Assembly: GCA_964403695.1 (NCBI GenBank) | Contig: CAYOHF010000001.1 | Coordinates: forward strand, 38,181 to 102,180 | From: an uncultured Woeseiaceae bacterium | GTDB taxonomy: Bacteria > Pseudomonadota > Gammaproteobacteria > Steroidobacterales > Woeseiaceae | DNA length: 64,000 nucleotides | Direction of reading: 5' to 3' | In this document: in pieces, positions 5,244 through 64,000 of the stretch | Position numbering within the stretch: position 1 is the first letter of the stretch | Layout of the letters: every line of letters starts with the position of its first letter | Program-made: the position numbers and the translations under genes | The notes under the pieces: model-generated | The model's database searches: none | Told to the model about the DNA's origin: nothing | Seen by the model: only the letters and a program-made list of their open reading frames with translations

Positions 5244-5387
5244 TGTTTCGTCCTCTGGTTGCTGTGTTCTCCACTTTCAGGTTCTCAATACCCCCTTTAT
5301 AGATCAATAAGAGAAAACCGCAAGGCCATTTGAGGGCGTTACTTGCCCCTGATTCGAGTCTTGCTGAGCAGTCGACTGATCGGTCAG

Positions 5388-6077: not shown

Positions 6078-6141
6078 GGGATCCTGATTACCCAACACCT
6101 GGAATGAACACAAGCATTCCGCGACCGGCAATTGACTGCAT

Positions 6142-40463: not shown

Positions 40464-41369
40464 ATGGCCGATATCAGAAACCTGGACCTGAACCTGCTGC
40501 GTGCCCTTAGCGTGTTGCTGGAAGAGCGCAATGTCTCGCGCACAGCTGAACGGTTGCATGTCACCCAGCCTACAGTCAGTGGCATGCTGTCCCGATTGCG
40601 GAATATATTTGGCGATCCACTGTTCGTGCGTACTCAGCGCGGCCTGTTACCAACGCCTCGTGCCGAGGCATTGGCGCCAGCATTACGACAATTGATCACC
40701 GATGCGATAGCGCTGGTTGACCCGGACGAGTTTGTTCCGCAGACCAGCACTGCAACACTATCGGTGTCAGTCAATGACTATATGCAGTCTGTGATGATTG
40801 TGCCGCTGGTCGCAGAGCTTCGACATTCGGCACCAAACATAAAGCTGGCGGTGCGCAACCTTGAGGTCGCAGCGCTCACATCAAAGCTGGCAAGTGGCGA
40901 CATCGACGTGGCTATTACGATTCCCGAGTTTGTCGATCCGTCTCTGCGTACTCAATTTCTGTACCGCGAAGAGTATGTCGCCGTTGTGCGAGAAGAGCAC
41001 CCGATCCGCGCGCGGCGCGTGTCACTGAAACGGTTCCTCGACTATGACCATGTCCTGGTCTCGCCCTCCGATGGATCCTTCGAAGGCCCAACCGATAACG
41101 TGCTCAGAGAACTTGGTAGCAGCCGGCGAGTTGCTCTTTCCGTGCCGAGTTTTTTTATCCTTACCGAGGTGTTGCAGGAAGATGATCTGATTGCGTTCAT
41201 GCCGCGACGCTTGTTCGCAAGGCGGTCGAAAAACCTGAGGATGATCGGAGCGCCTTTCGATGTACCTGGGTTCGATGTCATTGCTGCATGGCATCCACGT
41301 ACTGATTCTGAGTCAGCGCATGTCTGGATGCGCGGACAACTCGCAAAATTGGGCGAGTCGGTCACATAA
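40464..41369 (+). CDS. LysR-family transcriptional regulator
   Basis: The N-terminal HTH LDLNLLRALSVLLEERNVSRTAERLHVTQPTVSGMLSRLR is followed by a LysR substrate-binding domain. 301 aa. Confidence 0.9.
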   Translation: MADIRNLDLNLLRALSVLLEERNVSRTAERLHVTQPTVSGMLSRLRNIFGDPLFVRTQRGLLPTPRAEALAPALRQLITDAIALVDPDEFVPQTSTATLSVSVNDYMQSVMIVPLVAELRHSAPNIKLAVRNLEVAALTSKLASGDIDVAITIPEFVDPSLRTQFLYREEYVAVVREEHPIRARRVSLKRFLDYDHVLVSPSDGSFEGPTDNVLRELGSSRRVALSVPSFFILTEVLQEDDLIAFMPRRLFARRSKNLRMIGAPFDVPGFDVIAAWHPRTDSESAHVWMRGQLAKLGESVT

Positions 41370-42300
41370 CAAACTGAATAACCACGTACAGGATCGCCAG
41401 CGTAACCGCAAAAGCAACAGCGGCCAGGATGATGTTCCTGGTGTTGCCCGGTGGTTTAACTGCTTTGCTGACTCTCGTGGCGCTACCCAATTGATCCGGC
41501 GTCCTGAAGACACACTCAACAGGACCAAAACGAATTCGATCACCATTGTCGAGGTAGCTCATGTTGCTGCGTTTGCCATTGACGAAAGTGCCGTTCGCTG
41601 ACATTTGATCCGTTAATTTCCAGCGCGCTCCATCCTGGGTTAGCTTGGCGTGGACGCCTGAAACGCCTTGTTCTTCGAGCACGATATCGCGATCTGCGTC
41701 GCAGCCGATCGTCCACTCACCTTGCGTGCCTGCCGATTTCAGATTAATCCGGGCACCTGACATGGCGCCGGTTGAGACGATCAGGACAGGAACATTTACG
41801 TCGTCGGCCATTTCACTGACGCCCTGTTCTCCATCCTGCATCATCTGTTTCAGAGCTGCCGAATCGATAAACTCGGTTTTTGGCCCACCAGCCGATTTCT
41901 GATTCGGATCAATCCATGCCGGCCTTTCCCGGATGCCACTGCCATCGACGTCGATGTCCTCAAGTTTTCGCATCACCGTTTGCTGCGAATCGTTGCTGAC
42001 GGTTTGGTCGTAAGGAATCTTGTATTCGAATTCTTCAAGGTCAAAGCGAATCTTGTCGCCTGAGCGGAGCACGACCGAACTCTCGATCCGCTGGTCATTG
42101 ACGAACGTGCCGTTCGACGAACCCAGGTCTTCGAGTTTAAGCTCATTGCCGCTGATACTGAACTTGGCATGTTGCCGCGACGGATGTCCTTCAGTCAGCA
42201 CCAGGCCCGATTCCGCCAGGCGCCCGGCGATAAGGCCGTCGGTCAACACGGTTTCTTCGCCATTACTTGCTTTTTTAAGAATTAATTGTACGTCCGACAT
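41362..42300 (-). CDS. tail-anchored protein with two FHA domains
   Basis: FHA1 is canonical (GR...., SRQHAKF, SSNGTFVND, GDKIRF). FHA2 is near-canonical (IGCDADRDIVL, VSGVHAKL, SANGTFVNG, GDRIRFG). A C-terminal TM helix IILAAVAFAVTLAILYVVIQFV is present. Confidence 0.85.
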   Translation of the reverse strand: MSDVQLILKKASNGEETVLTDGLIAGRLAESGLVLTEGHPSRQHAKFSISGNELKLEDLGSSNGTFVNDQRIESSVVLRSGDKIRFDLEEFEYKIPYDQTVSNDSQQTVMRKLEDIDVDGSGIRERPAWIDPNQKSAGGPKTEFIDSAALKQMMQDGEQGVSEMADDVNVPVLIVSTGAMSGARINLKSAGTQGEWTIGCDADRDIVLEEQGVSGVHAKLTQDGARWKLTDQMSANGTFVNGKRSNMSYLDNGDRIRFGPVECVFRTPDQLGSATRVSKAVKPPGNTRNIILAAVAFAVTLAILYVVIQFVM

Positions 42301-42320: not shown

Positions 42321-43121
42321 CTATTTAACTGCCCACAGTATCAGGGCGAAAATAATTGCCAGTAGCGGCCCCACCACGAATGGCCACCAACGTGCGTTCA
42401 TGACCCGCCACAAATGGCCGAGTCCTTTTGCATCTTTGAATTCAATAATTATGACACTAGTGTTGTCGCGACCGCCATTAGTGATGGCCGCATCGACGAG
42501 TTCATCGACGGCCGACTGCACATGTTCACAGGATGCCAGTATTTCCGCGATTTCTGAATCTTCAAGTTCACCGTTCAGGCCATCGCTGCAGAGCAATATC
42601 CAGTCACCATAACGCAGTGGAACCTCTGTAATTGACGGCATCGGCTCACCGAGCCCCAGTGTTTGCGTGACCAGGTTGCCGCGCGGGTCCGCACGAATCT
42701 GTTCCTCGGTCAGGATATTTTGCGCGCGCAATAATTCATGGAAGGAATGATCGCGGGAAATTTGTGACAGGTCCTTTTTGCGCCACAAGTAGGCACGACT
42801 ATCGCCGACCCAGGATATCTCCGCCAGGTTATCCGCCAGTTTTGCGACAACAATGGTTGTGCCCATGCCTGACAGCGACTGGTCCTTGTCGGCGGCAGCG
42901 ATAATTGCCTCATGGGCGCCAACAATTTGTTCTTCCGTGGATTTATCCGGTGCAGGTTCGAGCAGGCTTTTGCTGGCGGTCTCGCTGGCGGTCTTGCCAT
43001 TGACGTGACCGCCCATTCCATCAGCGACAAACCAGAGTTTGCGCTCCTCATCCCAGCCGATCGAGTCCTCATTCTCGCCACCGCGGCTGCCGACGTCAGT
43101 TTTGGCTGCAAAATTAAGCAT
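42321..43121 (-). CDS. PP2C-family Ser/Thr protein phosphatase with a C-terminal TM anchor
   Basis: TDVGSRGGENEDS, FVADGMGGHVNG, GMGTT, LLCSDGL and GGRDNTSVI are PP2C motifs. The C-terminal helix is WWPFVVGPLLAIIFALILWAV. Confidence 0.88.
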   Translation of the reverse strand: MLNFAAKTDVGSRGGENEDSIGWDEERKLWFVADGMGGHVNGKTASETASKSLLEPAPDKSTEEQIVGAHEAIIAAADKDQSLSGMGTTIVVAKLADNLAEISWVGDSRAYLWRKKDLSQISRDHSFHELLRAQNILTEEQIRADPRGNLVTQTLGLGEPMPSITEVPLRYGDWILLCSDGLNGELEDSEIAEILASCEHVQSAVDELVDAAITNGGRDNTSVIIIEFKDAKGLGHLWRVMNARWWPFVVGPLLAIIFALILWAVK

Positions 43122-43124
43122 CGC

Positions 43125-44441
43125 TCAGAACTGTCCCTGCACGTCTTGTGCGGTTCGGCTGAAAGACGAAGGATTGAATGTCGAATCGTTTTCGACCTCT
43201 TTATATATTCGGTCGAGTGCAGCAGTTTTTTGTTGCCTGTCGCCCAGCGTGTAACTCAGGCTTTCAAGCCCAAGGTACAACTGTTCCGCTGCATTGAAGT
43301 CGTTCATATTTCCACCTGCTGCAGATTGTATGAGTGCACGTCGAACCGCAACAATAGTGTTCTTGTCGAACGGTCGAGTCGACCACTCACTCTTGCGGGT
43401 TTCAAGCCAGGTAATGAGTGCCCGGCTTGTTTGCCGGACACTCGCAATATTTTCCTGGCCTGAACGAACAAACGCAGCAGTGGCAGCGGTCATCTCTGTC
43501 TGTGCAGAGGTCGATTCAATAGTGCCGACGACGGTTTGCAGAATGATCAGGTGCTGATCCTGCAGCCGCGGTGAACCTGGCAATACACCAGGACCAGCTC
43601 GAGCCGGCGTCCAGCGTTTGTCATCCATTTCATGGTGACATCCGTGGCAGTCATATAGTGCGAGTTCCGGGTACAAGCCTTCATTGGGAACAAGCCTTTG
43701 CCCGACAAGATCGAGATAACGGCGAGCGGCTTCAACCTGGCCGGTGAGCCACAAATTGAACCCCGGTATCTCTCCTTTGCGTTGACGATAGTCTTCGTCA
43801 ACGTCGTAGTGAGCCGGCTGGTTGGTTGTGAACGCCTCCAGTTCAAAACTGAGTCGCGGGTGACCGGCACCCATGATGTCGTGACTGGCAAACTTTTCGG
43901 CCGTTCCCATGTGGCATGACAAACACAGCTCTGCCCGGTCGCCCGGTTTTTCGGTCGGATACATTCCTCGCGCAAGGTTGTCGGCGTGCGTTGCTCCTTC
44001 CGCTGCGTGACTCTTGATCCATTCTTCGGCACCACCGTGACAGGCCTCGCAGCCAACGCCATCACTAAGCTGAAACTTGGGGCCACGTTTTTCCCTTGCG
44101 ACGTTGTCCGTATGGCAATCGAGACAAACTTTTGCGGTAGTGGCGCTGCCGAGGCCAAGATAGTCCGCAATCCGTTTCGATTCGTCACTTGTCAGGGTGC
44201 GATACGCCTGCGAGTGTTTGTCGGCACTGGTCCAGATGCGATATTCGTTCAACCAGACATTGATGTCTTTTTGCCGATCCAGTTTTCCGTGACAAACACT
44301 ACTTGCACAACTAGCGGGGCCTAAGTGTATGTTTTGGTTAATTAATGTTTCATCTGCGAATACATTTTCAGCACTTACAGACAGTGCTGCAATCAAGCAC
44401 AGCAGTCGGCAAGTGGCCGTTTTGTAAGTCGCAGCATTCAT
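43125..44441 (-). CDS. periplasmic multihaem c-type cytochrome (cytochrome c554-like family)
   Basis: Signal peptide. Four CXXCH motifs (CLDCH, CEACH, CLSCH, CHGCH) plus one CX4CH (CASSVCH). The segment W.....DKHSQAY is typical of c554-like proteins. Confidence 0.8.
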   Translation of the reverse strand: MNAATYKTATCRLLCLIAALSVSAENVFADETLINQNIHLGPASCASSVCHGKLDRQKDINVWLNEYRIWTSADKHSQAYRTLTSDESKRIADYLGLGSATTAKVCLDCHTDNVAREKRGPKFQLSDGVGCEACHGGAEEWIKSHAAEGATHADNLARGMYPTEKPGDRAELCLSCHMGTAEKFASHDIMGAGHPRLSFELEAFTTNQPAHYDVDEDYRQRKGEIPGFNLWLTGQVEAARRYLDLVGQRLVPNEGLYPELALYDCHGCHHEMDDKRWTPARAGPGVLPGSPRLQDQHLIILQTVVGTIESTSAQTEMTAATAAFVRSGQENIASVRQTSRALITWLETRKSEWSTRPFDKNTIVAVRRALIQSAAGGNMNDFNAAEQLYLGLESLSYTLGDRQQKTAALDRIYKEVENDSTFNPSSFSRTAQDVQGQF

Positions 44442-44446: not shown

Positions 44447-47400
44447 TTACTCACCAGCATCGGTCGTCGCGACATCTTCTGGCGCAGTTTCTTTTGCCGC
44501 GTCGTCAACAAACCATGGTTTCCCTGACTCGTCGAGATACAGGCGGCGCATTTCTTCGAGATTCAATGGTCGCGAACCACGTCTGCCGAACACGGCAACC
44601 TGGCCACCAGTTTCGTCAACGCCGCGATCACGTTCAAGGCCGCGCGACAAACTCAATGCCGTCTTCGACGTCTCGTAACTCGCAATGAGGTCAGGCACAG
44701 GCTCCGGACTAAAGCCATAGAACTTCGGCTGCAGATCCGGTGACGTAAGCTGCACTATCTTAATGCCATTTGCGCCATCGGCAACGTAAGCGAATAACGA
44801 TGCGTTGGTTGTTGCAACAACCACATCGCGTGCATCGTTCAATGCACCGTTTGCATCGAACCGGGTGAGCTCAACCAACGCTTCTGGTCGTTCTGCATCC
44901 ACGATAACCAAGCCGTCCGCTCCCGCAGCAATATAGGCATAAGTTCTGGCGACGAATACCTTGTGCGCATTTGAGAGCGCGATCGTGTTGTTTTCGATCA
45001 GCCTCGCGGAGCCAGGATCGGTGACGTCAATGACGCTAAGCCCTGCACCTGAAGTCACAAACAAATAGCGAAACTGCAATACGCTGGCTCTTGCGTCGTC
45101 CAACGCCACCGTCGCGATCAGTTCCGGGTGTAGTGGATCGTCGACACTAATAATTTTTACGCCGCTATCGGTTGTGATGTAAAGGTAGTAACCACCAACC
45201 GTAATGTGCCGTGCACCATTTAGTACGCCATCGGGGTTCCAGCTTAGCGCGCGCTCCAGGTCATTATTGCGTGGCTCACCATCGACCAGTGTGTTGACAT
45301 TGACCAGGATCAGCCCTTCTTCTGCGTCGATGATAAACGCGTAGTCGTAAAGCGGGTGTATTACCTGCTCGAGGTTATCTATCCGCATGAGGTCGCCCTC
45401 ATTGCGCGCCGGATTGATGTTCTGGTTGGTTGGCAGCGCAACACAGGTCGCGTTCTTCGTCTTGATATGGGTGTCCTGTCCTACCGCACTAAATGGTGAT
45501 GAGATGATGCGTTGGGATATGCCTTTATTGGCGATGCCCGCAACGTCATAGACATTGAACCCTTTCTTGCCTTCCGCCACGTACAGATACTCGCCACGTA
45601 ATTGCAGGCACTGCGCCGTGCCTGCGCCGTGCTGATAGGCTTCTTCGAGCTCAGCACCATTATCTAAGTGCTTCTGATAGAAATCCGGATACGCGTAGCG
45701 ATGCAGGTAGCTGCCAATGACCGCCTGCGGCTCTTCCCACTCGGTCACTGTTACCGCGGAAATTTCTCCCTGCCCGCCGACATAAGCATTGAAACCGATG
45801 AAATTGACGAAGTTGGTTCCCTGCGCCAGCAGTTGCGCCATGATGGCATTGTTATCGTTTTCACCCGAGAGATGGCAATCGACACAGGTCTTGGTCTCCG
45901 TCTTGCGTGCCGTATGCGGAAAATGCGGATTAAATGCCTGCGAACTGAAGCCGCTCGCTGAAATCGGTGGCTGCTGCACGTAAATTCTTTCGCGATTTGA
46001 ATTGGTTGAAGACAACACGAGTGCCGAGCTCGAGCGCACTGGCGCTATCTTGCCGCTTTTCGCTTCGCCGCGGCGACCGATGAGGAACATCTGGTCACGT
46101 GCAACCTGTGGATTGTAGGTGGCATAGTTTCTGGATTCGCCACCTTCATAGTGATGGCGGTCTGTCTTCCAGTTCGCCTCAATTGGTAAGTGACAACCAC
46201 CACAACTCGTGGTCCATGACGTATGGCAGGTGTAACACTCGATTTCGTCATTGGAGTGCGCGAGATTATCGGTCGACACATTGGTGCCCCATAGTTGGGT
46301 ACCGGTGTCCTTGCTCATGAGTTTCGCCCGGGCCGCTTTTTCGTTGTAATTCTCATGTCCCGGCGTAACCGAGTCTTTCACCAGGCTGAGTTGCCATTCC
46401 AGTTCCGGGTCGAGCATCGAGCGCTGATACAAAACGTCATTTTGCCATTCGAAGCGGCGTCTGCCGTCGGGCGTACGCAACGCTTCCAGATCAGCACCGC
46501 CGGATAGTGCAGCTGGCCCCGACGTATAAAGGTTTGGATACGACTGCGCGGTACCGTGACAATCTTTGCAATCGACCTCGACCGCGAGCGCTACTTCGCC
46601 GTAGATATGCCCGTTGCCGTGGTTGTCCTGCGAGAAATGACAGTCCACGCAGTGCATGCCGACATCCACATGGATCGACGACATGTGTACTGCCTTGGCG
46701 AATTTTTCCGGGTCCTCATCGCTGACGACTGCACCCTCATCGTCAAGCAGATTTCCTTTCCTGTCGCGCTTGAAAACCGCACGGAAATTCCAGCCATGGC
46801 CATGGTAGTCGGCGAACTGCGTGTCGTTGAGCTCGGAATTCATCTCCGAAACCCGTTTCAGAAATTCGACATCTGCCCAGTTGCCACGCACAGCAGCACC
46901 TTCCGGATTGCGGTCGAGGATTTCACGCTGTTCCGCAATCGTAGGGTACTGTTGTTCCTCCGGCCACATGGCCGGCGCATCCGATTCGTAATCCCACATC
47001 GTGTAGCCGAGGTAGCTGTTCATGAACATGTTCGGCTGATGCATGTGACAAACCATGCACTGGCTGGTCGGTACCGCGCGGGTAAATGTATGTTTCAACG
47101 GATGGCCCGACTCGTCCTTGTTGATGGTCGGATCTACAGTCTGGGTTTTGCCTTCATGACCGAACTGCGCATATACGCCGGAGTGGCGCGGATCGCGGTC
47201 GTTTGCGTAAACGCTGTGACACGATGAGCAACCGGACTGACGATAGTCGCCCGGCTGGTCGTTGGTGCCCATAAACCAGGTGAACGGATCGTTAAGCCGT
47301 GTCTTGGTAATGTTAATCAGAGGCACTGATATGCGTCCCCCCGTTCCCGGTCCACGATTGGATTGGCGAAAGTCCGGCCGGCCCGGTTCTTCGATGCGCT

Positions 47401-48247
47401 GCAACTGGCCGAGGGCATTTGGCAGGCCGGTTTCCGGGAACAGGTTGCTTATGTTGCGGCCACCACGTTCAAAGACCCTGAAAATGTCGCCAGGTTTGAC
47501 GGATTCCCACACCGGCAATGGGTATAAGGCCGGAATAATGCCGGCATCCAGCAGCGCTTGCTTGTGTGCGTCTGCCACGGTTGGTCCATGCAGGATGACC
47601 GGGTTACCATCCTCATCGTACGACTCGCCGAGGATGTAATTCTTGAAAGGCAGAATGCCGTTGTTATAGGCGGCACCGCCCCACAACATTGCGCCCGTCG
47701 CATGCATGCTGCGTATCGAAGCTTCAATTGTCGATTGATGACATGCGCCGCAAGCGTCATTCGCAACGCGGTAGTCCGATGGATTCATGAAGCGAACAAA
47801 CTCACGGCTTTCGCGATTCAGCAACGTATAAGTTCGCTCCGGGTTGGCACTGTGTGGCAGATGCCATGATTCCGGGTACAACGGCAACACGTGTGCTTGT
47901 TCGACTGCCGCCGCGTAATCCGGGCTGCCATGCGTAGTGCCGACGCTAATGGATACTGCGGCATTACCGCCATGGCAATCCGTGCAACCGAGTTGTACAG
48001 CAGGGCTAACATGCATGGACTTGCTGTCGGTCTCCGTGTGACAGGACAAACAACCCCCACTTTTCGCATCTGCGTCGGCTACGGTCTGGTTGGCTGGCGC
48101 CGGGGGCGTCTCTGCATAATCGCGCTTGACCGGTTTTTCACCTTCTGCGGCCGACGCGATCAGGGCGGAAAACAAAACTGACGCCAGTACAAAAGTGCAA
48201 ACCTGCAGCGACATTTTCGGCACACGTTTCATTATTGATCTTTTCAT
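44447..48247 (-). CDS. 1266-aa decahaem c-type cytochrome fused to a C-terminal LVIVD-repeat beta-propeller
   Basis: Signal peptide. Ten CXXCH motifs (CLSCH, CTDCH, CGACH, CSSCH, CMVCH, CVDCH, CKDCH, CYTCH, CGGCH, CVDCH) lie in the first about 830 aa. Six LVIVD-type repeats follow (YLYVAEGKKGFNVYDV, YAFIIDAEEGLILVNV, YLYITTDSGVKIISVDDP, YLFVTSGAGLSVIDVTDP, YAYIAAGADGLVIVDAERP, FAYVADGANGIKIVQLTSP). Confidence 0.85.
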   Translation of the reverse strand: MKRSIMKRVPKMSLQVCTFVLASVLFSALIASAAEGEKPVKRDYAETPPAPANQTVADADAKSGGCLSCHTETDSKSMHVSPAVQLGCTDCHGGNAAVSISVGTTHGSPDYAAAVEQAHVLPLYPESWHLPHSANPERTYTLLNRESREFVRFMNPSDYRVANDACGACHQSTIEASIRSMHATGAMLWGGAAYNNGILPFKNYILGESYDEDGNPVILHGPTVADAHKQALLDAGIIPALYPLPVWESVKPGDIFRVFERGGRNISNLFPETGLPNALGQLQRIEEPGRPDFRQSNRGPGTGGRISVPLINITKTRLNDPFTWFMGTNDQPGDYRQSGCSSCHSVYANDRDPRHSGVYAQFGHEGKTQTVDPTINKDESGHPLKHTFTRAVPTSQCMVCHMHQPNMFMNSYLGYTMWDYESDAPAMWPEEQQYPTIAEQREILDRNPEGAAVRGNWADVEFLKRVSEMNSELNDTQFADYHGHGWNFRAVFKRDRKGNLLDDEGAVVSDEDPEKFAKAVHMSSIHVDVGMHCVDCHFSQDNHGNGHIYGEVALAVEVDCKDCHGTAQSYPNLYTSGPAALSGGADLEALRTPDGRRRFEWQNDVLYQRSMLDPELEWQLSLVKDSVTPGHENYNEKAARAKLMSKDTGTQLWGTNVSTDNLAHSNDEIECYTCHTSWTTSCGGCHLPIEANWKTDRHHYEGGESRNYATYNPQVARDQMFLIGRRGEAKSGKIAPVRSSSALVLSSTNSNRERIYVQQPPISASGFSSQAFNPHFPHTARKTETKTCVDCHLSGENDNNAIMAQLLAQGTNFVNFIGFNAYVGGQGEISAVTVTEWEEPQAVIGSYLHRYAYPDFYQKHLDNGAELEEAYQHGAGTAQCLQLRGEYLYVAEGKKGFNVYDVAGIANKGISQRIISSPFSAVGQDTHIKTKNATCVALPTNQNINPARNEGDLMRIDNLEQVIHPLYDYAFIIDAEEGLILVNVNTLVDGEPRNNDLERALSWNPDGVLNGARHITVGGYYLYITTDSGVKIISVDDPLHPELIATVALDDARASVLQFRYLFVTSGAGLSVIDVTDPGSARLIENNTIALSNAHKVFVARTYAYIAAGADGLVIVDAERPEALVELTRFDANGALNDARDVVVATTNASLFAYVADGANGIKIVQLTSPDLQPKFYGFSPEPVPDLIASYETSKTALSLSRGLERDRGVDETGGQVAVFGRRGSRPLNLEEMRRLYLDESGKPWFVDDAAKETAPEDVATTDAGE

Positions 48248-50177: not shown

Positions 50178-52229
50178 CTATTTCGCGTCGCAGACATTGT
50201 CGTCTCCCGTCGCAATAAATGGTGCTTGCGGACATTGCACGTAGCGCAAGCGAACGCCCTGCGGTGTGAGATTGTCCGCACGCCGGTCAATCGGCGCGTT
50301 ACCGACGCCGTTACCGAGTTCCAGACCTGCGTTGTGCAGTCCGAGGAAAGAAATCATGTCGTCCTGGTCGATACCGTCGCCGGATACGCCGATACCACCT
50401 ACCAACGTACCATTTCGATAAATGGGCACACTACCGGGGAAGATCTGCAGGCCATTGCCGACGCGGTTGTTCGTAACAGTCGGGGCGAAGGTCAGGGTAT
50501 TGGGATCAACCAGTTCAACGCCGGCGCAGATCGGCCCGACATCGGCAGCGATAATGCCAGCAGCAAAAAGTACATGCTGCAATACGGCGTTGTATGAGAC
50601 GTCCAGTTGCAGCCCGGTAGAAAACGGGCTCCACTGTCCTGCGGCTTTGCTCAACGGACCCGCTCCGTTGGTATCAATGCCATCCGGGTAGTAAGGCCGC
50701 GACAGGTTGCCGCCGGCACGGTCCGAAAAAGCTACCAGCCCATTGGTCAGTGCATCGGGGTCGCCGAGAAAAGCCTGCAGTGCAGTAACGTAGTCATCGA
50801 TTACAACCGGCAGTGAGAACGCCGGACCAGCATCGCTTGTCGTCAGGTAGCTGACGTCCGGCAGTGCGGTGAGAAAATCCGCTGCGGTCGCGGATGAGAA
50901 AAAAGTTGCTGTACGCGCTTTTTGTAATGAAACGTCGGCACCGAATACCGGCGCGTCGCGACTACGCACCATGCCAAGAATTTCACCCTCGGTGTCGACG
51001 ACTGAAATCGTAACTCGTGCAAAAGTGCTTAATGGCTGGCGAATTTGCGCGCGGGCCCGGGTCGCTACGTCGAGCGCATTGCGCAAGATTGTTGTTACGT
51101 CATTCTGCGTCAGTTCATCGCCTGCGAGCGCCGCGCCATCCGTGCCACCAATCGGCGGATAACGGGGTGTTCCTGCTGAATCGACAAAAACGAACGCATC
51201 CAGGCCGGGAAACAGGTTGGCAGCATCTGGTGCTATGCCAGAGGCGTTTGTGCCAAAAAGTGTTCCGTCACGAATAACACCATCGGTGTAACCGACCACG
51301 CTAAGCAAGGCGCCGGTCGCAACCGGAAGCGTGGCAAAGGCGGGCGCAGATGCCGGATCACTTGCGAGGTCTGAAAATCCAACATCACTAAAACGAAACG
51401 TCTTGCCCTCGACGGTAATCTGGTCGCCACGCCGGTCCTGCGGTGCGGCAAAGCCGAAGGTCGCAGCATAGGCGATCATTTCGTCAGCATCGCGGTCACT
51501 GTCGGTTATGACCGGATCAGCTCCGTAAACGCCATCGGCGATAACGCCGACGCCACCGACCACGGTGCCATCTTTATACAGCGGGAAGCCACCCGGATCC
51601 GCCGCCAGGCCCAGCGGTGATCTGTGAGGGCCTGCACTGACGCCAATACCGTCAAATGGCTGGGTAAAATCGGAACAAGCCAGCTGGCTGAACTGGACGC
51701 CAAACAAGGGTCCGCCAGGTTGAAACTGTTCTCCCGGATTGAAATGGTCCTGCACGATCTGGCTTGCGGTTCGGCTCGAAAACGCATTGCCCTCGGAGGA
51801 CAGGTAGGCACCGGTTACTGCTTTTGCGATTGCTGCGAGGTCATCCAGGTTTGCCGCAACCGGAGCAACCGGCAATAGGATGCCCTCCAGACCCGCGGTG
51901 ACCGGTGTCGCACCGCCGACGCCGGCTGTCGTTGATATCAGTACATCACGATTGGCGGCGTTGCCCATGCGATAAACCGCCAGGACATTGCCAACCCGGT
52001 CAACGACTGCCACGGTAGCTTCAACATTTTGTGCCTGTGCTTCGGCGACTGCTTGTGCAATTACCTGCTCGACATCGGCGACCAGCATTCCGGCAGCCGT
52101 CGCTGCACAATTGCCATCACAATTGTTTCCCGAATCGGTCCCCGCATCGCTACTGGTCGGGCTGCCACCCGAACACGCTGACAGAATAAGAATCCACAGA
52201 GGCAAAAACAGCTTATTGCGATTTTTCAT
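50178..52229 (-). CDS. lipoprotein with two GlcG/HbpS-like (DUF336, haem-binding-type) domains
   Basis: Lipobox LILSACSG. Two copies of the DUF336 pattern are present: (1) VAVVDRVGNVLAVYRM...GGFPLYKDGTVVGGVGVIADG; (2) ISVVDTEGEILGMVRSRDAP.FGADVSLQKARTA..F...GSVPIYRNGTLVGGIGVSGDGIDQDD. Confidence 0.7.
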   Translation of the reverse strand: MKNRNKLFLPLWILILSACSGGSPTSSDAGTDSGNNCDGNCAATAAGMLVADVEQVIAQAVAEAQAQNVEATVAVVDRVGNVLAVYRMGNAANRDVLISTTAGVGGATPVTAGLEGILLPVAPVAANLDDLAAIAKAVTGAYLSSEGNAFSSRTASQIVQDHFNPGEQFQPGGPLFGVQFSQLACSDFTQPFDGIGVSAGPHRSPLGLAADPGGFPLYKDGTVVGGVGVIADGVYGADPVITDSDRDADEMIAYAATFGFAAPQDRRGDQITVEGKTFRFSDVGFSDLASDPASAPAFATLPVATGALLSVVGYTDGVIRDGTLFGTNASGIAPDAANLFPGLDAFVFVDSAGTPRYPPIGGTDGAALAGDELTQNDVTTILRNALDVATRARAQIRQPLSTFARVTISVVDTEGEILGMVRSRDAPVFGADVSLQKARTATFFSSATAADFLTALPDVSYLTTSDAGPAFSLPVVIDDYVTALQAFLGDPDALTNGLVAFSDRAGGNLSRPYYPDGIDTNGAGPLSKAAGQWSPFSTGLQLDVSYNAVLQHVLFAAGIIAADVGPICAGVELVDPNTLTFAPTVTNNRVGNGLQIFPGSVPIYRNGTLVGGIGVSGDGIDQDDMISFLGLHNAGLELGNGVGNAPIDRRADNLTPQGVRLRYVQCPQAPFIATGDDNVCDAK

Positions 52230-53947
52230 GGCTGACTCGTTTCTATAGTGGCGGTGTAGTCACTGGCAAATGGATGATAGGAATGACAATCGATACAACT
52301 TGTCGTCACACGTTCCGGCGTTGGTTTATCGCTGTGGCATGCCAGGCAGGTATCGATGTCCGGAATAAGCAAATCGATGCTCTGCGACGATTGATCGGCG
52401 CCGTGACAAACCAGGCAAGCCGCGTCACCGGTCTTCTCATTCATTACCTGGTGGGAAAGGTGATCGAAGCGGCCCGCGGAAAAATAATCGGTGGCCAGTC
52501 GCACCGGGTGTACCTGGTAGCGCGCATAAATTTCACTGTTCACATGTTCCTCGACGATATGGCAGCTGACACACCCTCTTACCGTGAACTGCTCGCGAAT
52601 ATCCTCTGCCGCCGCCTGCGCTGCACAATTGAACGCGGTATCGACACACTCACGTGTGCTGTTGTCCTTATCGGGAATTCTGCGCCGTACGACGGCCTCC
52701 TGTGGCACGCTCGGATCGCTGAACTTACGCAAATACTGGCCCTCCAGCGCGAACATGACTTCTACCGGCTGACCATGTGGCAAGAGGCGATCCGGCATGG
52801 TCGGGTCAAACGTTAGTTCGTGACACTCAACACATTGCGTTTCCATTGTTATTGGCACGAAATGTTCCCGGTCCAGGGAAAGTTCGTGACAATTTCCGCA
52901 GCCAAGCGGGTTGCCATCGCGCAGGTCGGTAACCAGTTCTGCATCCAGGTGCGTGTCATGCGGAAACTTGAGGTTCGACATTTCTACCGCGTTGCTGACC
53001 GCTTCACTTTGTTCCTGCCACTCGAAAGACAGTCCGGTTCCGGCTCGACTGCTGACTGGTTTCAGCAACGTTGCGGCAAAAGCAGGATGATCGGTCTCGG
53101 AAAAACCTGATACCGACGCAATACTTCCGGCAACTGACAACTGATCGGAATCGATATGACAATCGGTACACAATGAATCCGCGCGAATGATCAGGTGTGG
53201 CTCGGGTTCATTGTGTTCCAGATGACAACTTGCACAGCGGGGCGTCGGCTCGAGTGTACTTATTGCCGCCATCGTGTCGGCATGCACATGATCATTGATG
53301 CGCTCGTGACAATTTAGGCAGGCTGTATCCTGCACGCGCTCGAAATTCTGCATGTGACACTGACGACAGTCATCGCCGATCGCAAGTGTATGTGCCGGAT
53401 GCAAAGGACCGCTGGTCCAGAATGCGTCGCTGGGAATCCAGGCCGTATCCGCAAAGCTGTCATCACCGCTACTTTTGAGAAACATTGGCAGCAGGAACGC
53501 GAGCACGATCAATAGACCCGAGATTGTCCAGGCGGCAGAGCGGATGGAGAACCAGGATTGGTAAAGGTCTGTGCGAAATGCGCTCTCGAAAACGCTGGCA
53601 TCGACATTCGCGTCGAGCTCGATCTGGATACCGTGGTCAAAACCCGCCGGTGCGTCTACGAGCATGAGCCGATTGCCACCGATTTCAATAACGTCCCCGG
53701 TTGACAGCGTTGCCGACGTAAGCTCTTCACCGTTGACCAAAACGTTGTAACCGCGGCGACATTTAATCGCCAGCCCGCCCGGCGCAGCCGTGAGCTCTGC
53801 ATGTTCCGCGCCGACGTTATTCCCCAGCACCTGGATCGAGCGGTCCGGGGCACTGCCGAGCGTAATCGTATCCGCGGAGACTTCGACATCGCGATATTCG
53901 GCAATGCCATCGGCGCTGGGTCTTATTTCTCTTAGCAGTACATCCAC
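52226..53947 (-). CDS. FHA-like domain / single TM / decahaem c-type cytochrome fusion protein
   Basis: The N-terminal about 100 aa have an FHA-like pattern (ITLGSAPDRSIQVL...GAEHAEL....GGLAI......VLVNGEEL....L..GDVIEIGGNRLML). The TM helix is WTISGLLIVLAFLLPMFL. Ten CXXCH motifs follow (CRQCH, CLNCH, CASCH, CTDCH, CGNCH, CVECH, CVSCH, CLVCH, CLACH, CIDCH). Confidence 0.8.
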   Translation of the reverse strand: MDVLLREIRPSADGIAEYRDVEVSADTITLGSAPDRSIQVLGNNVGAEHAELTAAPGGLAIKCRRGYNVLVNGEELTSATLSTGDVIEIGGNRLMLVDAPAGFDHGIQIELDANVDASVFESAFRTDLYQSWFSIRSAAWTISGLLIVLAFLLPMFLKSSGDDSFADTAWIPSDAFWTSGPLHPAHTLAIGDDCRQCHMQNFERVQDTACLNCHERINDHVHADTMAAISTLEPTPRCASCHLEHNEPEPHLIIRADSLCTDCHIDSDQLSVAGSIASVSGFSETDHPAFAATLLKPVSSRAGTGLSFEWQEQSEAVSNAVEMSNLKFPHDTHLDAELVTDLRDGNPLGCGNCHELSLDREHFVPITMETQCVECHELTFDPTMPDRLLPHGQPVEVMFALEGQYLRKFSDPSVPQEAVVRRRIPDKDNSTRECVDTAFNCAAQAAAEDIREQFTVRGCVSCHIVEEHVNSEIYARYQVHPVRLATDYFSAGRFDHLSHQVMNEKTGDAACLVCHGADQSSQSIDLLIPDIDTCLACHSDKPTPERVTTSCIDCHSYHPFASDYTATIETSQP

Positions 53948-53951: not shown

Positions 53952-54845
53952 TCACCAGTAAATGAACGTCGTGACGATATGAATCACGAGCGCTATGAGA
54001 AGTGCGACTGATATTGGGATATGAATCAGCAGCCAGATCCTGATCCGGCCACGCAGACGAATATCGTGAGAAACCCGGCGCAATACAGCCTGACGCCGGC
54101 AAAAAACTTCGAGAAGCTCCTGTAGTAATTCGGTTTCGGCAACTTTGTTGGTTTTCGGTAAGCGACCCGCAATGAAATCGATGACAGGTTGCTGGTCCCT
54201 GTTACTAACTGGCTTGCCACCGTCGGATCTCGCGCCGGACGATGGCCGTATAAAGAGTGACTGATCCTTGCCAACCAGTTGTGCGTATGCGCCACCGCCA
54301 ATTGCGGTGCGTTCTACGGCACTACGTACTGCCAGGTTGATGTCATCAGGACTTTTTGCGCCGAGTTCGCGGGCGCGATTGTCCAGTGAGAAAAGCTCCG
54401 CGAACAGTGCCGATCGCGACGACCCGGAGCGGTTGGCAGTCATCGAATGCGGGTAGTTGATATAGGTGTAAATGCCGTAGAAACCGCTAAAGATGACGAA
54501 ACACATCATCAGGTAGGCCAGCGAGTGCACGTTCCAGCCCAGCTGCCCGGCGCTGTGCAAAGTTGCGACGATAAGCAACGCAGTCCCGAGGTAAACATGG
54601 GCGGAAGTCCAGCCAGCCACCGAGCCAAGTGACGATGAGTAACTGCGTTTCCTGATGCCCAGCATCAGCAACCAGACAATAAGGAGCGCGCCAACAGTTC
54701 CCAGGACATACCCTTGCCAGGTGCCGCCATTCGCTGGCTGAAAGCCGCCCTGGGTCGAATAAAGTATTGCTGATATCACCACCAGCACCAGTGACCACCA
54801 CAAGTAGCGGTTGTTGGCGTAACGCAGAATGCCAACATGGATCAT
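53952..54845 (-). CDS. integral membrane protein with a di-haem-b-type His-X13-His pair on two helices
   Basis: About 5 TM helices. Helix 3 is SAHVYLGTALLIVATLHS and the last helix is LIHIPISVALLIALVIHI, each with two His exactly 14 positions apart. Its start overlaps the upstream oxidoreductase stop (ATGA at 54842-54845). Confidence 0.7.
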   Translation of the reverse strand: MIHVGILRYANNRYLWWSLVLVVISAILYSTQGGFQPANGGTWQGYVLGTVGALLIVWLLMLGIRKRSYSSSLGSVAGWTSAHVYLGTALLIVATLHSAGQLGWNVHSLAYLMMCFVIFSGFYGIYTYINYPHSMTANRSGSSRSALFAELFSLDNRARELGAKSPDDINLAVRSAVERTAIGGGAYAQLVGKDQSLFIRPSSGARSDGGKPVSNRDQQPVIDFIAGRLPKTNKVAETELLQELLEVFCRRQAVLRRVSHDIRLRGRIRIWLLIHIPISVALLIALVIHIVTTFIYW

Positions 54846-57397
54846 CGACGGCGTTCCTCGACCAGGTCAATAAATTGCGCAGGACCTATGCGCATTGCCG
54901 CACCGGTGGGGCATGCGGATACACAGGCCGGGCCACCTTTTTGCCCCACGCAGGCGTCGCACTTGGTGGCCTTCTTGCCTTTCTTTTTCGCCGCGTCTGA
55001 TACCTCGTAGTCGTCCTCCTGGCCAGGTCCGCTGCCGCTGCCAAACATCAGCCAACTGAACAAACCGGGTTTTGCCGGGGCGTCATAATTAAGGCTGATT
55101 ACCTTGTATGGACAATTGGCAACGCAGTTGCCGCAGCCGATGCAGGAGTCGTTGATATAAACCTCGCCACTCTCAGCCCTGCGAATGGCATTCGGCGGGC
55201 AGTCCTTCATGCAGTGCGGTTGCTCACAATGCCGGCAGGAAATTGGTATGTGCACTTCAGCTAACGTTGGGCCCTCTTTTCGGTTAAGCCTCGATATGCC
55301 GGCATGCGTTTCTGCACAGGCTTTTTCACAATTGTCACAACCAATACACAGTGACTCGTCAATGACGAGCACGTTGGTCGCCTCACCGAGACCCTCTGCC
55401 ATCAGGAATTCCATGACCAATCCCGATTCGGGTCGGACCGCCATGCGTGCTTTGTCAGTCACATTCTGGCTGACCGTTTCCTGGAGAACCTTTATCTGGC
55501 CCTCGTCCTTGCGCACCAACTCGATGAACTCCGGACGATTGACCTCAATAGTTTCGACGGCGACAGTCGCCCTGGCGGATTCGCGCCGGGTCGGATCACC
55601 CATGAGCGCCATGTCACCAATGCGCCGACCGCCGCGTACTTCACCAACCAGCACCGCTTCGCCATCGACCATGCGGGAGAGGGCGACACCGCCGGAGCGA
55701 ATGATGTGCAGGCTGTCACCTTGTTCACCTTCAGTGAAAATGATGTCGCCAGCCTTGAAACTGCAAACCTGCACCCGCGAACTGATGTTACGAAGTTCGG
55801 CAACGTTAGCGCGCGGGGCAAATTGTGCCTGCAACTCGCGGACCACAAATATCCACTCAATGCCTTCACGAACTGTATCGTTGGAGTTCATCAGTTTCAG
55901 CATCGTGCGGCGTGGGGACTCAACGACGATGCAACTTGCGCCGGCAACCGCCCGCTCCAGGCGTGGTCGCCCGGACAACAAACTCATCTCGCCGAAGAAT
56001 TCGCCACGCGACAGAGTTGTTTTATCAATGACACCAGCACCGTCTATGTCCCGTTCGAGAGAGACTTCGCCATCGACAATCGTGAAAAATGAGGTGCCGA
56101 ACTCGCCTTCCTCGTAAATTACATCGCCTTCGCGAATTACACGAGTCGTACGTGGCGGTTTGGTATTGGCGGCGAATTTTTCGGCAAGCAGATCGGCTTT
56201 TTTTCTTGCTTCCCCATACTCCGCACCATCGGGGTAGGAAACAATGATGTTGCTTTCGATAACCAGTTCCCTGAAGGCGAGAGCATTCAGCTCACCAAAC
56301 ATGGGTATGAGGCTTTGGAAGCGCTCGATCAGGTCGTCGACCTCGCGCTCATATGGCAAACCGTGAAACTGGTATTCGAGCAGCGGATGATCGGCTGGTT
56401 GTATGAAGTTGCCACCAATGAACTCGACCACGTCGTAGCCCTGGTTCATTGCCTGCTTGATCAGCGGATAACCGGCCAGTGAACCGATGATGTAAATACC
56501 GGGGCAATTGCTCTCGTAATGTCGTGACAGTTGCGGAATCGCATCGCGCTTGTTGCTGGGGAATTCCACGCCGATAGATTCAACAAATTTTCTCGGCGGG
56601 ATTGCGCCCAGTCGTGCAATGATCCGGTCGCAAGGCTGCTCGATCTCGCCCTCAGGCGTATCCAGTGTCGCAAGCAAAGCGTGTTCCGCACCATCGGTCT
56701 GTACGACCGATTTGATCGAAGTGGAATAGTGGCACTCGAGCCGTTCGTCGGGATTGCTGATAGCGGCAAGAATAGCGTTCAGGTTGCCCTCTTTTGCCCG
56801 GCTGAACTCATCGCGCCGGTTAAGGATCCAGACCTGGTTTTGCTCTGCCAGCGCAAGGGCATTTTCGATCGCCGCGTCACCGGCACCGACGACCAGAACC
56901 TTTTCTTCGTCATATTCTTTCGGGTCATCAAGCTGGTATTGCACCCGCGGCAAGTCCTGACCTTCGACGCCAAGCTTGCGCGGGTTTCCTTCCAGCCCGA
57001 TAGCCAGGACGACGGACTCTGCCACGATAGTAGAACCGTCAGTCAGCGCGATACTGAAATTGCCTTTGTCGCCCGTTATGCTTTTGACTTCTGCGCCAAA
57101 GCGAATATTGGCGCCGGTCTTTTGCAAATCCTCCTGCCATTGGCCGAGAATCTGTTCACGAGCACCGGCAGAAAAACGCATGTCGCTGCGCAGATCAAGA
57201 AAGCCAGGTTCGGCCATGACGTGCTTGCCTTTCTGGTATCGTTGCACGGTCTTGGCATGCACACCGAAACCTTCAAGGAGGATATGTGAAGGAGAGGCTG
57301 CGCCGGACTCAGCATCCAGTCGGGCAGCACGGCCTGCGGCACTCAGACCAGCCGGACCCGCACCAATAATGGCGATGCGATAGCTATCCGTCGCCAT
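54842..57397 (-). CDS. FAD/NAD(P)-binding oxidoreductase fused to two cyclic-nucleotide-binding domains and a C-terminal 4Fe-4S poly-ferredoxin
   Basis: Dinucleotide folds IAIIGAGPAGLSAA and VLVVGAGDAAIENA. Two cNMP-binding patterns (FFGEMSLLSGRPRLERAVA; IGDMALMGDPTRRESARA). Cys clusters CIGCDNCEKAC, CRHCEQPHCMKDCP, CIGCGNCVANCP and CDAC...CVSACP. No signal peptide. Confidence 0.85.
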   Translation of the reverse strand: MATDSYRIAIIGAGPAGLSAAGRAARLDAESGAASPSHILLEGFGVHAKTVQRYQKGKHVMAEPGFLDLRSDMRFSAGAREQILGQWQEDLQKTGANIRFGAEVKSITGDKGNFSIALTDGSTIVAESVVLAIGLEGNPRKLGVEGQDLPRVQYQLDDPKEYDEEKVLVVGAGDAAIENALALAEQNQVWILNRRDEFSRAKEGNLNAILAAISNPDERLECHYSTSIKSVVQTDGAEHALLATLDTPEGEIEQPCDRIIARLGAIPPRKFVESIGVEFPSNKRDAIPQLSRHYESNCPGIYIIGSLAGYPLIKQAMNQGYDVVEFIGGNFIQPADHPLLEYQFHGLPYEREVDDLIERFQSLIPMFGELNALAFRELVIESNIIVSYPDGAEYGEARKKADLLAEKFAANTKPPRTTRVIREGDVIYEEGEFGTSFFTIVDGEVSLERDIDGAGVIDKTTLSRGEFFGEMSLLSGRPRLERAVAGASCIVVESPRRTMLKLMNSNDTVREGIEWIFVVRELQAQFAPRANVAELRNISSRVQVCSFKAGDIIFTEGEQGDSLHIIRSGGVALSRMVDGEAVLVGEVRGGRRIGDMALMGDPTRRESARATVAVETIEVNRPEFIELVRKDEGQIKVLQETVSQNVTDKARMAVRPESGLVMEFLMAEGLGEATNVLVIDESLCIGCDNCEKACAETHAGISRLNRKEGPTLAEVHIPISCRHCEQPHCMKDCPPNAIRRAESGEVYINDSCIGCGNCVANCPYKVISLNYDAPAKPGLFSWLMFGSGSGPGQEDDYEVSDAAKKKGKKATKCDACVGQKGGPACVSACPTGAAMRIGPAQFIDLVEERRR

Positions 57398-63578: not shown

Positions 63579-64000
63579 CTAACGAGCAACGATTGCCGAC
63601 CAATATTGTTTCCAGCCACTCGCGTGTGAACAGGACTGCACGATACGTCGCTCTGCATTCTTTGCGGTGGCAAAATATGCATCCGTAATCTGCGGCGGAA
63701 TAATGTGATCATCCCGGCACTGCCAATGGATTTCTGACATCAAACCAGGCAGGGCCGCTGCAGAGTCGAGAGGACCAAGATCATTGAGCGGCGAGTACTC
63801 ATGGAATTCTGTCCATGCCCGGGGATCCAGGTTGGCAGCGATCGTTGTAATTGCTACCAGGTGGTCAACGCATGAGCGCATGCCAACGACGATCGTGCCA
63901 CCACCCGAATAGCCGATTAGTTGCACGCTCTGTGCGCCGTACTGACGTGTAATCTCGTTGGCCGCGAGACACATGCTGTCGACGATCTCGCGTCCGTAGC
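63579..64000 (-). CDS. alpha/beta-hydrolase-like protein, 5' end beyond the window
   Basis: The reading frame stays open to the window edge (…YGREIVDSMCLAANEI…). A nucleophile-elbow-like G-Y-S-G-G (IGYSGGG) is present. The family is not resolved. Confidence 0.45.
   Translation of the reverse strand, partial: YGREIVDSMCLAANEITRQYGAQSVQLIGYSGGGTIVVGMRSCVDHLVAITTIAANLDPRAWTEFHEYSPLNDLGPLDSAAALPGLMSEIHWQCRDDHIIPPQITDAYFATAKNAERRIVQSCSHASGWKQYWSAIVAR

Follow-up and report, generated by a model that had tools for sequence, protein, structure and literature searches.

Full-text literature searches turned up the fusion of a forkhead-associated (FHA) domain to a multihaem cytochrome in only two sources. 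In a Gallionellaceae pangenome table of 2023, cytochrome cluster 403 is named 'Forkhead-associated protein', with 10 haems and 27 genomes (PMC10734462). A preprint of May 2026 described NHC of Ferrigenium straubiae, a membrane-associated nonahaem cytochrome c with a cytosolic FHA domain (bioRxiv 10.64898/2026.01.22.701106, section 6.3.2). NHC adjoins a five-helix membrane protein without database match and a [4Fe-4S] protein; its authors considered the FHA-multihaem combination previously unreported, saw no redox motif in the neighbouring membrane protein and left the function open (bioRxiv 10.64898/2026.01.22.701106). Here we analysed a gene of this kind in a 64,000-nucleotide stretch of DNA, referred to as the window, from an uncultured Woeseiaceae bacterium (assembly GCA_964403695.1, contig CAYOHF010000001.1, positions 38,181 to 102,180 of the forward strand). 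The product of 573 residues, referred to as the target, resembles NHC and cluster 403 by description: a predicted cytosolic FHA domain, one transmembrane (TM) helix and a periplasmic domain of 9-10 haems, with five-helix and [4Fe-4S] proteins encoded next to it.

The target is almost certainly a bitopic inner-membrane c-type cytochrome, in which a cytoplasmic FHA-fold domain is followed by a juxtamembrane helix, one TM helix and a periplasmic ten-haem domain. Architecture, fold, motif conservation and synteny were all observed directly in this analysis. We propose that the target is the periplasm-facing subunit of a three-gene inner-membrane redox module and that its degenerate FHA domain serves as a cytoplasmic docking foot. 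The chances of this model as a whole appear to us about even.

The open reading frame (ORF) is located on the minus strand of the window. A first-pass annotation, made from the letters alone, had delimited it at exactly the same coordinates without naming a strand, and had read it as a single polypeptide with an FHA-like domain, a hydrophobic helix and ten haem motifs. Pfam, AlphaFold2, hydropathy and a count of the CXXCH motifs all agreed with this reading. Full-length homologues were found in at least 118 database clusters, with 44-91% identity and 98-100% query coverage. The relatives are single ORFs of 555-636 aa with the order FHA, TM and 9-10 CXXCH, in these independent clusters and in 366 species genomes. 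A frameshift that had artificially fused two genes, which the annotation had named as a possible flaw, is excluded because the same uninterrupted FHA-TM-haem ORF recurs across the homologues, those of the 118 clusters with all 10 CXXCH. The chance that this artefact or a cleaved signal peptide explains the protein is negligible.

The 366 genomes came from a scan of one genome per species, and the survey of the FHA plus multihaem architecture that had been suggested earlier showed it to be widespread. The hosts were mostly Woeseiaceae, Steroidobacteraceae and other Gammaproteobacteria. The best match was a Woeseiaceae metagenome-assembled genome (MAG) at 69% identity; further hosts included many Steroidobacteraceae, among them cultured Steroidobacter and Peristeroidobacter, 'Pseudomonadales' MAGs and one Marinobacter strain. 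An exhaustive profile search with the N-terminal domain yielded 505 representatives with E≤1e-10. When the best 150 of these were inspected, every full-length protein with a matching N-terminus had a TM helix and CXXCH motifs, ten in 54 proteins and nine in 5. Members of the family are named 'predicted CXXCH cytochrome family protein', 'cytochrome c3 family protein' or 'FHA domain-containing protein' in databases. A group of proteins of 900-1,700 aa (P0263, P0264, P0267, P0290, P0311 and others) also matched the N-terminal profile, with E down to 1e-31 when summed over repeats; these have 4-7 tandem FHA domains, one TM helix and no haem motifs.

The FHA assignment of the N-terminus, as first proposed from its sequence pattern, was supported by three approaches. 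The score of Pfam FHA (PF00498) at residues 28-90 was 26.3 bits when the whole protein was used and 29.3 bits with residues 1-135 alone; both exceed the gathering cut-off of 20.7, and 38 of 46 family members matched the model at E≤1e-3. AlphaFold2, given residues 1-135 with the 46-sequence alignment as input, modelled an 11-strand beta-sandwich (residues 2-110) followed by a helix at 117-131, with a mean predicted local distance difference test score (pLDDT) of 86.4 and a predicted TM-score (pTM) of 0.77. The 50 matches listed by Foldseek against the PDB were essentially all FHA domains; the best had E=1.7e-5, and the target-normalised TM-score reached 0.74. Among them were Rv1747 FHA-2, GarA/OdhI, EmbR and KIF13A/B, with YscD, PscD and EssC ranking lower.

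The residues that contact phosphothreonine (pThr) in canonical FHA domains (Arg, Ser and Asn) are all replaced in this domain. Among 119 sequences of the query's subfamily, position 32 was Ser in 111 and Arg in none. Position 46, the Ser of the S-x-x-H motif, was Ala, Gly or Gln, with Ser in only 3 of the 119, and the Asn position in the beta6-beta7 loop was variable. The substitutions of G-S for G-R and of G-A-E-H for S-x-x-H that the first-pass annotation had pointed out are thus real and conserved throughout the subfamily, which we call GS-type. Gly31, Asp35, Gln39, Gly42 and His49 were invariant or nearly so, and of these Gly31 and His49 are structural residues that have been retained. The apical loops are the most conserved part of the domain. 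The mean column identity was 0.58 for the N-terminal domain versus 0.61 for the haem domain. The segment P100-A-G102-F103-D104, with P100, G102 and F103 invariant, precedes the juxtamembrane helix, in which Thr126 is near-invariant. An origin of the domain as a recent copy of the neighbouring canonical FHA domain was ruled out, since the two share only 30% identity over 63 aa.

Hydropathy analysis found one hydrophobic segment in the target, with its core at 139-157, and a TM helix is located at about 130-165 in all full-length relatives. No hydrophobic stretch was found at the N-terminus, and hence no N-terminal signal peptide. In 119 homologues the flanks of the helix had a mean K+R of 2.5 on the N-side versus 1.2 on the C-side, and a net charge of +1.1 versus -0.8. 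All haem motifs lie C-terminal to the helix. Haem c attachment occurs in the periplasm. Because of the positive-inside bias and this periplasmic requirement, the helix is predicted to be an N-in signal anchor that leaves the FHA domain on the cytoplasmic side and the haems on the periplasmic side, as had been supposed from the outset; 137 residues of folded protein precede the helix. A cleaved signal peptide was rejected on the same grounds, as the hydrophobic segment does not start until residue 138, behind a domain whose fold is modelled with confidence, the N-terminus is non-hydrophobic and the flanks follow the positive-inside rule.

The ten CXXCH motifs noted in the first reading are located at residues 194, 210, 238, 260, 350, 372, 459, 511, 534 and 551, and all 118 of 118 homologues carry exactly ten. 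In 20,000 shuffles of the target protein the mean number was 0.04 and the maximum 2. Outside the motifs, exactly ten His residues were invariant (186, 220, 245, 287, 330, 333, 391, 496, 499 and 558), and the equivalent ten were likewise retained without exception when relatives at 26-41% identity were aligned. Ten motif His and ten further invariant His therefore fit ten bis-His haems, an arrangement typical of electron wires, and the domain looks like a wire and not a sensor. Pfam Cytochrom_c3_2, Cytochrome_C7 and Paired_CXXCH scored above their cut-offs on this domain, and its relatives in the PDB were remote only (GSU1996-type c7 polymer, HmcA, NrfB and c3). Between the TM helix and the first haem motif, which lies about 35 residues past the helix, the segment PxDAxWxSGPLHPAH is strongly conserved. 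C434 and C441 (about 52625-52648 of the window, minus strand) are invariant throughout the subfamily and lie outside any CXXCH; they may form a periplasmic disulfide or an unusual ligand pair.

In the first-pass annotation the protein was thought to relay the periplasmic redox state to cytoplasmic partners. As a transmembrane redox sensor, its haems would sense and its FHA-like domain would relay, with no net electron throughput. The bitopic layout is like that of many sensors, and cyclic nucleotide monophosphate (cNMP)-binding domains, a PP2C phosphatase and FHA domains are co-encoded, with a kinase or cyclase in relatives. Against this stand the ten invariant bis-His haems with conserved short spacing, which are wire-like, and the flanking genes, which give a complete redox cofactor chain on both sides of the membrane; in addition, no output domain is fused to the target. 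Known haem c sensors, to our knowledge, use one or two haems. We consider a sensor improbable.

To describe the gene cluster, we compared 80 related genome loci, in which gene order and strand were the same; most of the gene absences among them fall at contig ends. In the window, the target is the third gene of a co-directional array, after those for an 851-aa oxidoreductase and a 297-aa protein. Then follow genes for a 683-aa lipoprotein, a probable barrel of ~634 aa, a 1266-aa cytochrome, a 438-aa cytochrome, a PP2C phosphatase and a double-FHA protein. The junctions in the array are very short or overlapping (-4, +4, -4, +15, +5, +3 and +20 nucleotides (nt)). The oxidoreductase gene overlaps the 297-aa gene by 4 nt, a 4-nt gap separates the latter from the start of the target, and the target stop overlaps the 683-aa lipoprotein gene by 4 nt. 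These first junctions (-4, +4, -4) fit translational coupling of subunits. The 297-aa gene adjoined the target in 79 of the 80 loci, and the oxidoreductase was present in 74. The lipoprotein with HbpS-like domains was found in 72, the barrel in 61, the 1266-aa cytochrome in 55, the 438-aa cytochrome in 45 and PP2C in 43. The trio of oxidoreductase, 297-aa protein and target persisted in loci without the outer-membrane genes (L023, L051 and L067), and also in relatives at 26-38% identity with different downstream genes. The first three genes are thus the invariable core of the cluster.

The 851-aa oxidoreductase contains the motifs GAGPAG at residues 12-17 for FAD and GAGDAA at residues 171-176 for NAD(P)H, and no CxxC disulfide. 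Its 16 Cys, in four groups of four, were 98-100% conserved. This pattern matches a DmsB/NrfC-like wire of four [4Fe-4S] clusters, and proteins with such a wire are normally docked to a membrane subunit. In the 297-aa protein the His pairs H83-x13-H97 and H275-x13-H289 were 96-100% conserved in 72 orthologues and invariant in alignment A3, giving four conserved His on two TM helices, spaced for two stacked b-haems. Cytochrome b561 (PF01292) matched 35 of 35 members of this family below threshold, with a best E of 8.5e-6, and 15 matched DUF4405. Because of the His pattern and these consistent sub-threshold matches, the protein is a candidate di-haem b cytochrome. Its family has at least 1,479 members, and all of them carry the annotation 'hypothetical'.

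An electron-transfer subunit is favoured as the role of the target, because its bis-His wire is encoded with a translationally coupled four-[4Fe-4S] flavoprotein and a probable b-type cytochrome. Electrons would pass from NAD(P)H to FAD and the four [4Fe-4S] clusters of the cNMP-binding oxidoreductase, cross the membrane by way of two b-haems on the His-x13-His pairs of the 297-aa protein and enter the ten-haem wire of the target. From there they might move on to the lipoprotein with three HbpS-like domains, the probable barrel, the ten-haem LVIVD cytochrome and the c554-like cytochrome. An inward flow, against the membrane potential and onto NAD(P)+, would be strongly uphill for any likely periplasmic donor, and flow outward, from NAD(P)H to the periplasm, is therefore favoured.

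The FHA-like domain, situated at the base of the TM helix, would be a phosphorylation-independent docking or assembly foot for the flavo-FeS subunit, for the insert of the 297-aa protein or for both. This role is suggested because the pThr contacts are missing, the apical loops are conserved and the domain is about as conserved as the haem domain. A physical complex of the trio is likely; the docking role is the weakest step. Regulation would act in trans, through cNMP binding to the oxidoreductase and through the co-encoded PP2C, the canonical double-FHA protein and a Hanks kinase.

Several points weigh against the model. The query 297-aa protein scored 12.9 bits with PF01292, for which the cut-off is 30.1; neither profile nor fold searches found a PDB relative of it, and its AlphaFold2 model was weak in the TM region (pLDDT 55-65). 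We infer a complex of the trio indirectly, and the direction of flow is argued from thermodynamics only. The target was the least conserved member of the cluster, at 37-53% identity to the query; in the same loci its neighbours (the oxidoreductase, the HbpS-like protein, the barrel and the 1266-aa cytochrome) reached 55-78%. The PP2C, double-FHA and kinase genes travel with exactly the GS-type subfamily, which implies that phosphorylation matters somewhere in the system. In a sister subfamily, GR-type, which is 29-38% identical to the query, Arg was kept in 132 of 183 sequences of a wider set, Ser and Asn not. The ancestral domain may thus have bound a phosphorylated or acidic ligand, and that of the query might still do so non-canonically. 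Finally, the authors of the Ferrigenium preprint prefer a link to the quinone pool (bioRxiv 10.64898/2026.01.22.701106).

Applied to the target, such a link would make it a CymA/NrfH-like single-helix quinol dehydrogenase or quinone reductase, with the FHA-like domain as an accessory regulator. One TM helix with a periplasmic multihaem domain is what this would require, the conserved membrane-proximal segment PxDAxWxSGPLHPAH could form a quinol site, and there is the precedent of the proposal for the Ferrigenium nonahaem protein. We nevertheless found no match to PF03264 or to the NCBIfam quinol-dehydrogenase models. The distance of ~35 residues from the TM helix to the first haem motif also argues against it, and a CymA-type enzyme would not need the invariable flavoprotein and the His-rich membrane partner. 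This explanation seems to us distinctly unlikely.

The genes downstream of the target would extend the proposed electron-transfer chain away from the inner membrane (Table 1). Three HbpS-like domains in one lipoprotein beside multihaem cytochromes appear to be an uncharacterised architecture. The next product is probably an outer-membrane barrel, judging from a weak match to an NCBIfam porin model (E=5e-6) and a C-terminal aromatic residue; its start is uncertain (ATG at 50167 or 50140, with the longest ORF extending to 50290). No match at the level of MtrA, MtrB or MtrC was found among the downstream genes, which encode two secreted multihaem cytochromes together with the protein that matched the porin weakly. 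The first-pass annotation had also referred to neighbouring double-FHA, PP2C and oxidoreductase proteins, and Pfam and NCBIfam located all three in the window. The first domain of the double-FHA protein retains the canonical GR, SRQH and SSNGT motifs. In its second domain G-C takes the place of G-R. Both signalling proteins end in hydrophobic segments (residues 243-266 of PP2C and 286-312 of the double-FHA protein), as if tail-anchored in the membrane.

Table 1. Features of the target gene and of its surroundings, with positions in the 64,000-nt window.
Feature	Position	Strand	Basis
Whole ORF: FHA-like / TM / decahaem c-type cytochrome, 573 aa	52226..53947	-	GTG start, stop included
Predicted cytoplasmic FHA-fold domain, residues 1-110, GS-type (pThr-contacting Arg, Ser, Asn replaced)	53618..53947	-	Pfam, AlphaFold2, Foldseek, column composition
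Juxtamembrane helix, residues 117-131, consensus DASxFExAFRTDLxQ	53555..53599	-	AlphaFold2 secondary structure, invariant or near-invariant columns
Single TM helix, residues 138-158, predicted signal anchor N-in	53474..53536	-	Hydropathy, positive-inside statistics
Predicted periplasmic decahaem domain, residues 159-573	52229..53473	-	Ten CXXCH, ten invariant non-motif His, C434/C441 pair
297-aa five-helix membrane protein, helical cytoplasmic insert 130-265; candidate di-haem b cytochrome	53952..54845	-	Conserved His, weak b561
851-aa cytoplasmic oxidoreductase: FAD/NAD(P)H flavoprotein, two cNMP-binding domains, four-[4Fe-4S] ferredoxin domain	54842..57397	-	Pfam
683-aa predicted lipoprotein, three HbpS-like/GlcG (haem-associated) domains	50178..52229	-	PF03928 in three stretches; ...LILSAC lipobox-like signal
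Probable outer-membrane beta-barrel, ~634 aa	48263..50167	-	Signal-peptide-like N-terminus, C-terminal ...LVLAY
1266-aa secreted decahaem cytochrome, LVIVD beta-propeller repeats	44447..48247	-	10 CXXCH, signal peptide, Pfam LVIVD + c3/c7
438-aa secreted multihaem cytochrome, c554-like, 4 CXXCH + 1 CX3-4CH	43125..44441	-	
PP2C-type Ser/Thr phosphatase (Stp1-like), C-terminal hydrophobic tail	42321..43121	-	Pfam PP2C; NCBIfam Stp1_PP2C_phos E=5e-55
312-aa double-FHA protein, C-terminal hydrophobic tail	41362..42300	-	Pfam FHA two domains, E=1e-34
Accessory: autotransporter beta-domain protein	57445-58968	-	Pfam; directly upstream
Accessory: Sel1 + caspase (Peptidase_C14) protein, 912 aa	59100-61838	-	Pfam; directly upstream

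The module is clearly under signalling control, because GS-type and GR-type clusters carry alternative sets of regulators. Of the 80 GS-type loci, 25 have a gene for a Hanks kinase no more than 10 kb away, and in L023 and L051 the Pkinase match has E of about 1e-40; no such kinase was found in the 64-kb window. In the four GR-type clusters examined (L083, L085, L086 and L087), genes for a CHASE2-adenylate/guanylate cyclase, a TPR protein and a FecR-domain protein were located immediately upstream of the cNMP-binding oxidoreductase, the block lying at about 1200-6700 in each. No PP2C or FHA genes were found in these four contexts, and no CHASE2 cyclase near any of the 80 GS-type loci. This suggests that GR-type clusters exert an alternative, cyclic-nucleotide-based control of the same module.

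At the end of the window, a partial ORF (63597-63998, minus strand) runs off the edge and has a weak match (28% over 138 aa) to a 312-aa lipoprotein of L023 and L051. In both of those loci the gene for this lipoprotein sits between the Hanks kinase and the oxidoreductase. The kinase partner of PP2C and of the double-FHA protein may lie just beyond position 64000.

Control by phosphorylation could also be exerted at the FHA-like domain itself. As the control point of the module, the domain would bind a phosphorylated partner non-canonically, or else it or the helix with T126 would be phosphorylated, read by the double-FHA protein and reset by PP2C. Such gating is compatible with a role in electron transfer and differs only in the job given to the FHA-like domain. 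In the window, and in most loci whose flank is long enough, the last genes of the operon encode PP2C and a double-FHA protein that has canonical GR/SxxH/NG residues; their C-terminal hydrophobic tails would put them at the membrane, and the kinase genes within 10 kb are in keeping with this role. Signalling genes also stay linked to the trio where the outer-membrane genes are missing (L023, L051 and L067). The strong conservation of the apical loops and the Arg retained in the sister subfamily point in the same direction. The case is weakened because the subfamily accompanied by kinase and phosphatase is the one that has lost the phosphate-binding residues Arg, Ser and Asn, whereas the clusters that keep Arg lacked PP2C and FHA genes in all four contexts. 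Moreover, no kinase was found in the window. We regard such gating at the FHA-like domain as unlikely, although it is the main rival of the docking model.

A bolder reading can be put forward. The trio might be a quinone-independent inner-membrane electron gate, an NAD(P)H:multihaem-cytochrome-c oxidoreductase with a new di-haem b family, like eukaryotic NOX or ferric-reductase enzymes in logic and extended by FeS and haem wires to the surface. The FHA foot would then be a switch that turns electron export on or off through Ser/Thr phosphorylation in GS-type clusters or through cyclic nucleotides from the cyclase in GR-type clusters. We offer this as a speculation that falls well short of being probable.

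Other genes were observed around the cluster. Homologues of the autotransporter and the Sel1/caspase protein accompanied it in 17 of the 80 loci, in varied positions. The pair was located between the cytochrome and the HbpS-like gene in L005, L027, L028 and L047, and directly after the cytochrome in L051. A glutamate dehydrogenase of NAD(P) type (61867-63228, minus strand) is encoded a few kb upstream of the oxidoreductase gene. The same was seen in 13 of 84 loci (L001, L004, L037, L040, L044, L045, L053, L059, L060, L062, L064, L074 and L084), including a cluster whose cytochrome was only 26% identical to the query. This enzyme could be a local source of NAD(P)H, a target of FHA-type regulation as in the GarA/OdhI systems, or a coincidence. 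A few kb downstream of the cluster are two adjacent genes for TPR proteins of 693 and 737 aa (33894-35975 and 35990-38203, both minus strand). In the second, an N-terminal DNA-binding domain of OmpR/PhoB type (Trans_reg_C) is combined with a FlgO-like region.

Outside Shewanella and Geobacter, the crossing of the inner membrane ranks among the most poorly resolved steps in extracellular electron transfer. This gap is felt especially for iron oxidisers and for the abundant sediment and soil Gammaproteobacteria (Woeseiaceae and Steroidobacteraceae). The target marks a conserved module that, on sequence evidence, has a plausible unbroken chain of cofactors from the cytoplasm to the periplasm and beyond. 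Its family is the first multihaem cytochrome family with a fused eukaryote-like signalling fold, and the cNMP, kinase/phosphatase/FHA or cyclase genes that travel with it suggest post-translational gating of electron export. If the model is true, the trio would be a new class of site in the inner membrane at which electrons enter or leave conduits, and a family of membrane proteins with at least 1,479 'hypothetical' members would gain a function. Since cultured hosts exist (Steroidobacter, Peristeroidobacter and the Marinobacter strain), the model is open to direct testing.

With respect to known FHA domains, the best sequence relative of the N-terminal domain among solved structures was that of the kinesin-3 KIF13B (3fm8; E=1.1e-7), ahead of YscD. 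KIF13B and KIF13A (3fm8 and 5djo) share the fold and the motif iGSA..(d)IQL.G..i..eH, with Ser replacing the phosphate-binding Arg. KIF13B differs in being a eukaryotic motor protein from an unrelated context, and the likeness may be convergent. Its FHA domain is reported by Tong et al. (2010) to bind a partner without phosphorylation, which would be in keeping with the docking role proposed here. The actinobacterial regulators GarA and OdhI were among the top fold matches (TM-score up to 0.74) and significant profile matches; unlike the target, they are soluble, have the full pThr-binding set and regulate metabolic enzymes.

The SctD proteins of the type III secretion system (T3SS; YscD, EscD, PscD and PrgH) are similar to the target in that they combine a cytoplasmic FHA fold without canonical pThr residues, a single TM helix and a periplasmic domain. 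The first-pass annotation had compared the FHA-like domain with those of YscD/EscD type. The comparison stands as an architectural analogy, since YscD (4d9v, ranking 38th) and PscD (6uid) were among the fold matches and 43 of 46 family members matched the YscD cytoplasmic model PF16697 at E≤1e-3. It does not extend to closest kinship, which among solved structures lies with KIF13B. The query scored 26.7 and 30.3 bits with PF16697, below its gathering score of 33.2, and TIGR02500 did not match. The periplasmic part of the target is a decahaem cytochrome without ring-building motifs, and no T3SS genes were found nearby. Membership in T3SS SctD is thus unsupported by either profile cut-offs or gene context.

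Among cytochromes, the NapC/NirT family (CymA and NrfH) also has a single TM anchor and a periplasmic multihaem domain. The target differs in having ten haems and not four, a TM helix that is internal, after a cytoplasmic region of 137 residues, and different partners. PF03264 gave no match at E≤0.01, and membership is unsupported by profile, TM position, haem count and the spacing of motif and TM helix. The Tmc and Hmc complexes of sulfate reducers combine a periplasmic multihaem cytochrome c, a membrane b-type cytochrome and a cytoplasmic FeS protein, and transfer electrons across the membrane without obligatory quinone chemistry. Their likeness to the module is one of functional logic only. 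The TmcA model scored 20.9 bits against a cut-off of 114, the weak matches to TmcA, HmcA, HmcB and DsrO, those to HmcA and HmcB being on the neighbours, were all far below their cut-offs, and TmcA/HmcA membership is unsupported. The module also has no CCG-type cytoplasmic subunits; an NAD(P)H flavoprotein that bears cNMP domains takes their position, and the FHA-like domain belongs to the cytochrome itself.

Searches of the literature for LVIVD, cNMP-4Fe-4S or FHA with multihaem proteins, and for Steroidobacter multihaem proteins, returned only the unrelated uet cluster of Tenderiales, MtoAB and FhaB/FhaC adhesins. A metagenomics paper on Woeseiaceae contained only FeGenie-type mtrCAB calls, and the cluster of the target is absent from it. 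In a profile search that used divergent members, no Gallionellaceae or Ferrigenium names occurred among the best 120 matches. By description, the closest proteins are NHC and cluster 403, and nine-haem variants also exist in the family of the target. In contrast to these, the target is gammaproteobacterial and lies in a larger conserved cluster with the HbpS-like protein, the barrel, two multihaem cytochromes, PP2C and the double-FHA protein. The membrane partners also differ as described: the preprint found no redox motif (bioRxiv 10.64898/2026.01.22.701106), whereas the partner of the target has conserved His-x13-His pairs and weak b561-like matches. The FHA-multihaem fusion itself had thus already been noticed in those two sources. 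New here are how widely it occurs among Gammaproteobacteria, the core of three genes that does not vary, the His residues of the membrane partner that are candidate b-haem ligands, the four-cluster NAD(P)H flavoprotein, and the division into GS-type and GR-type subfamilies with alternative regulators.

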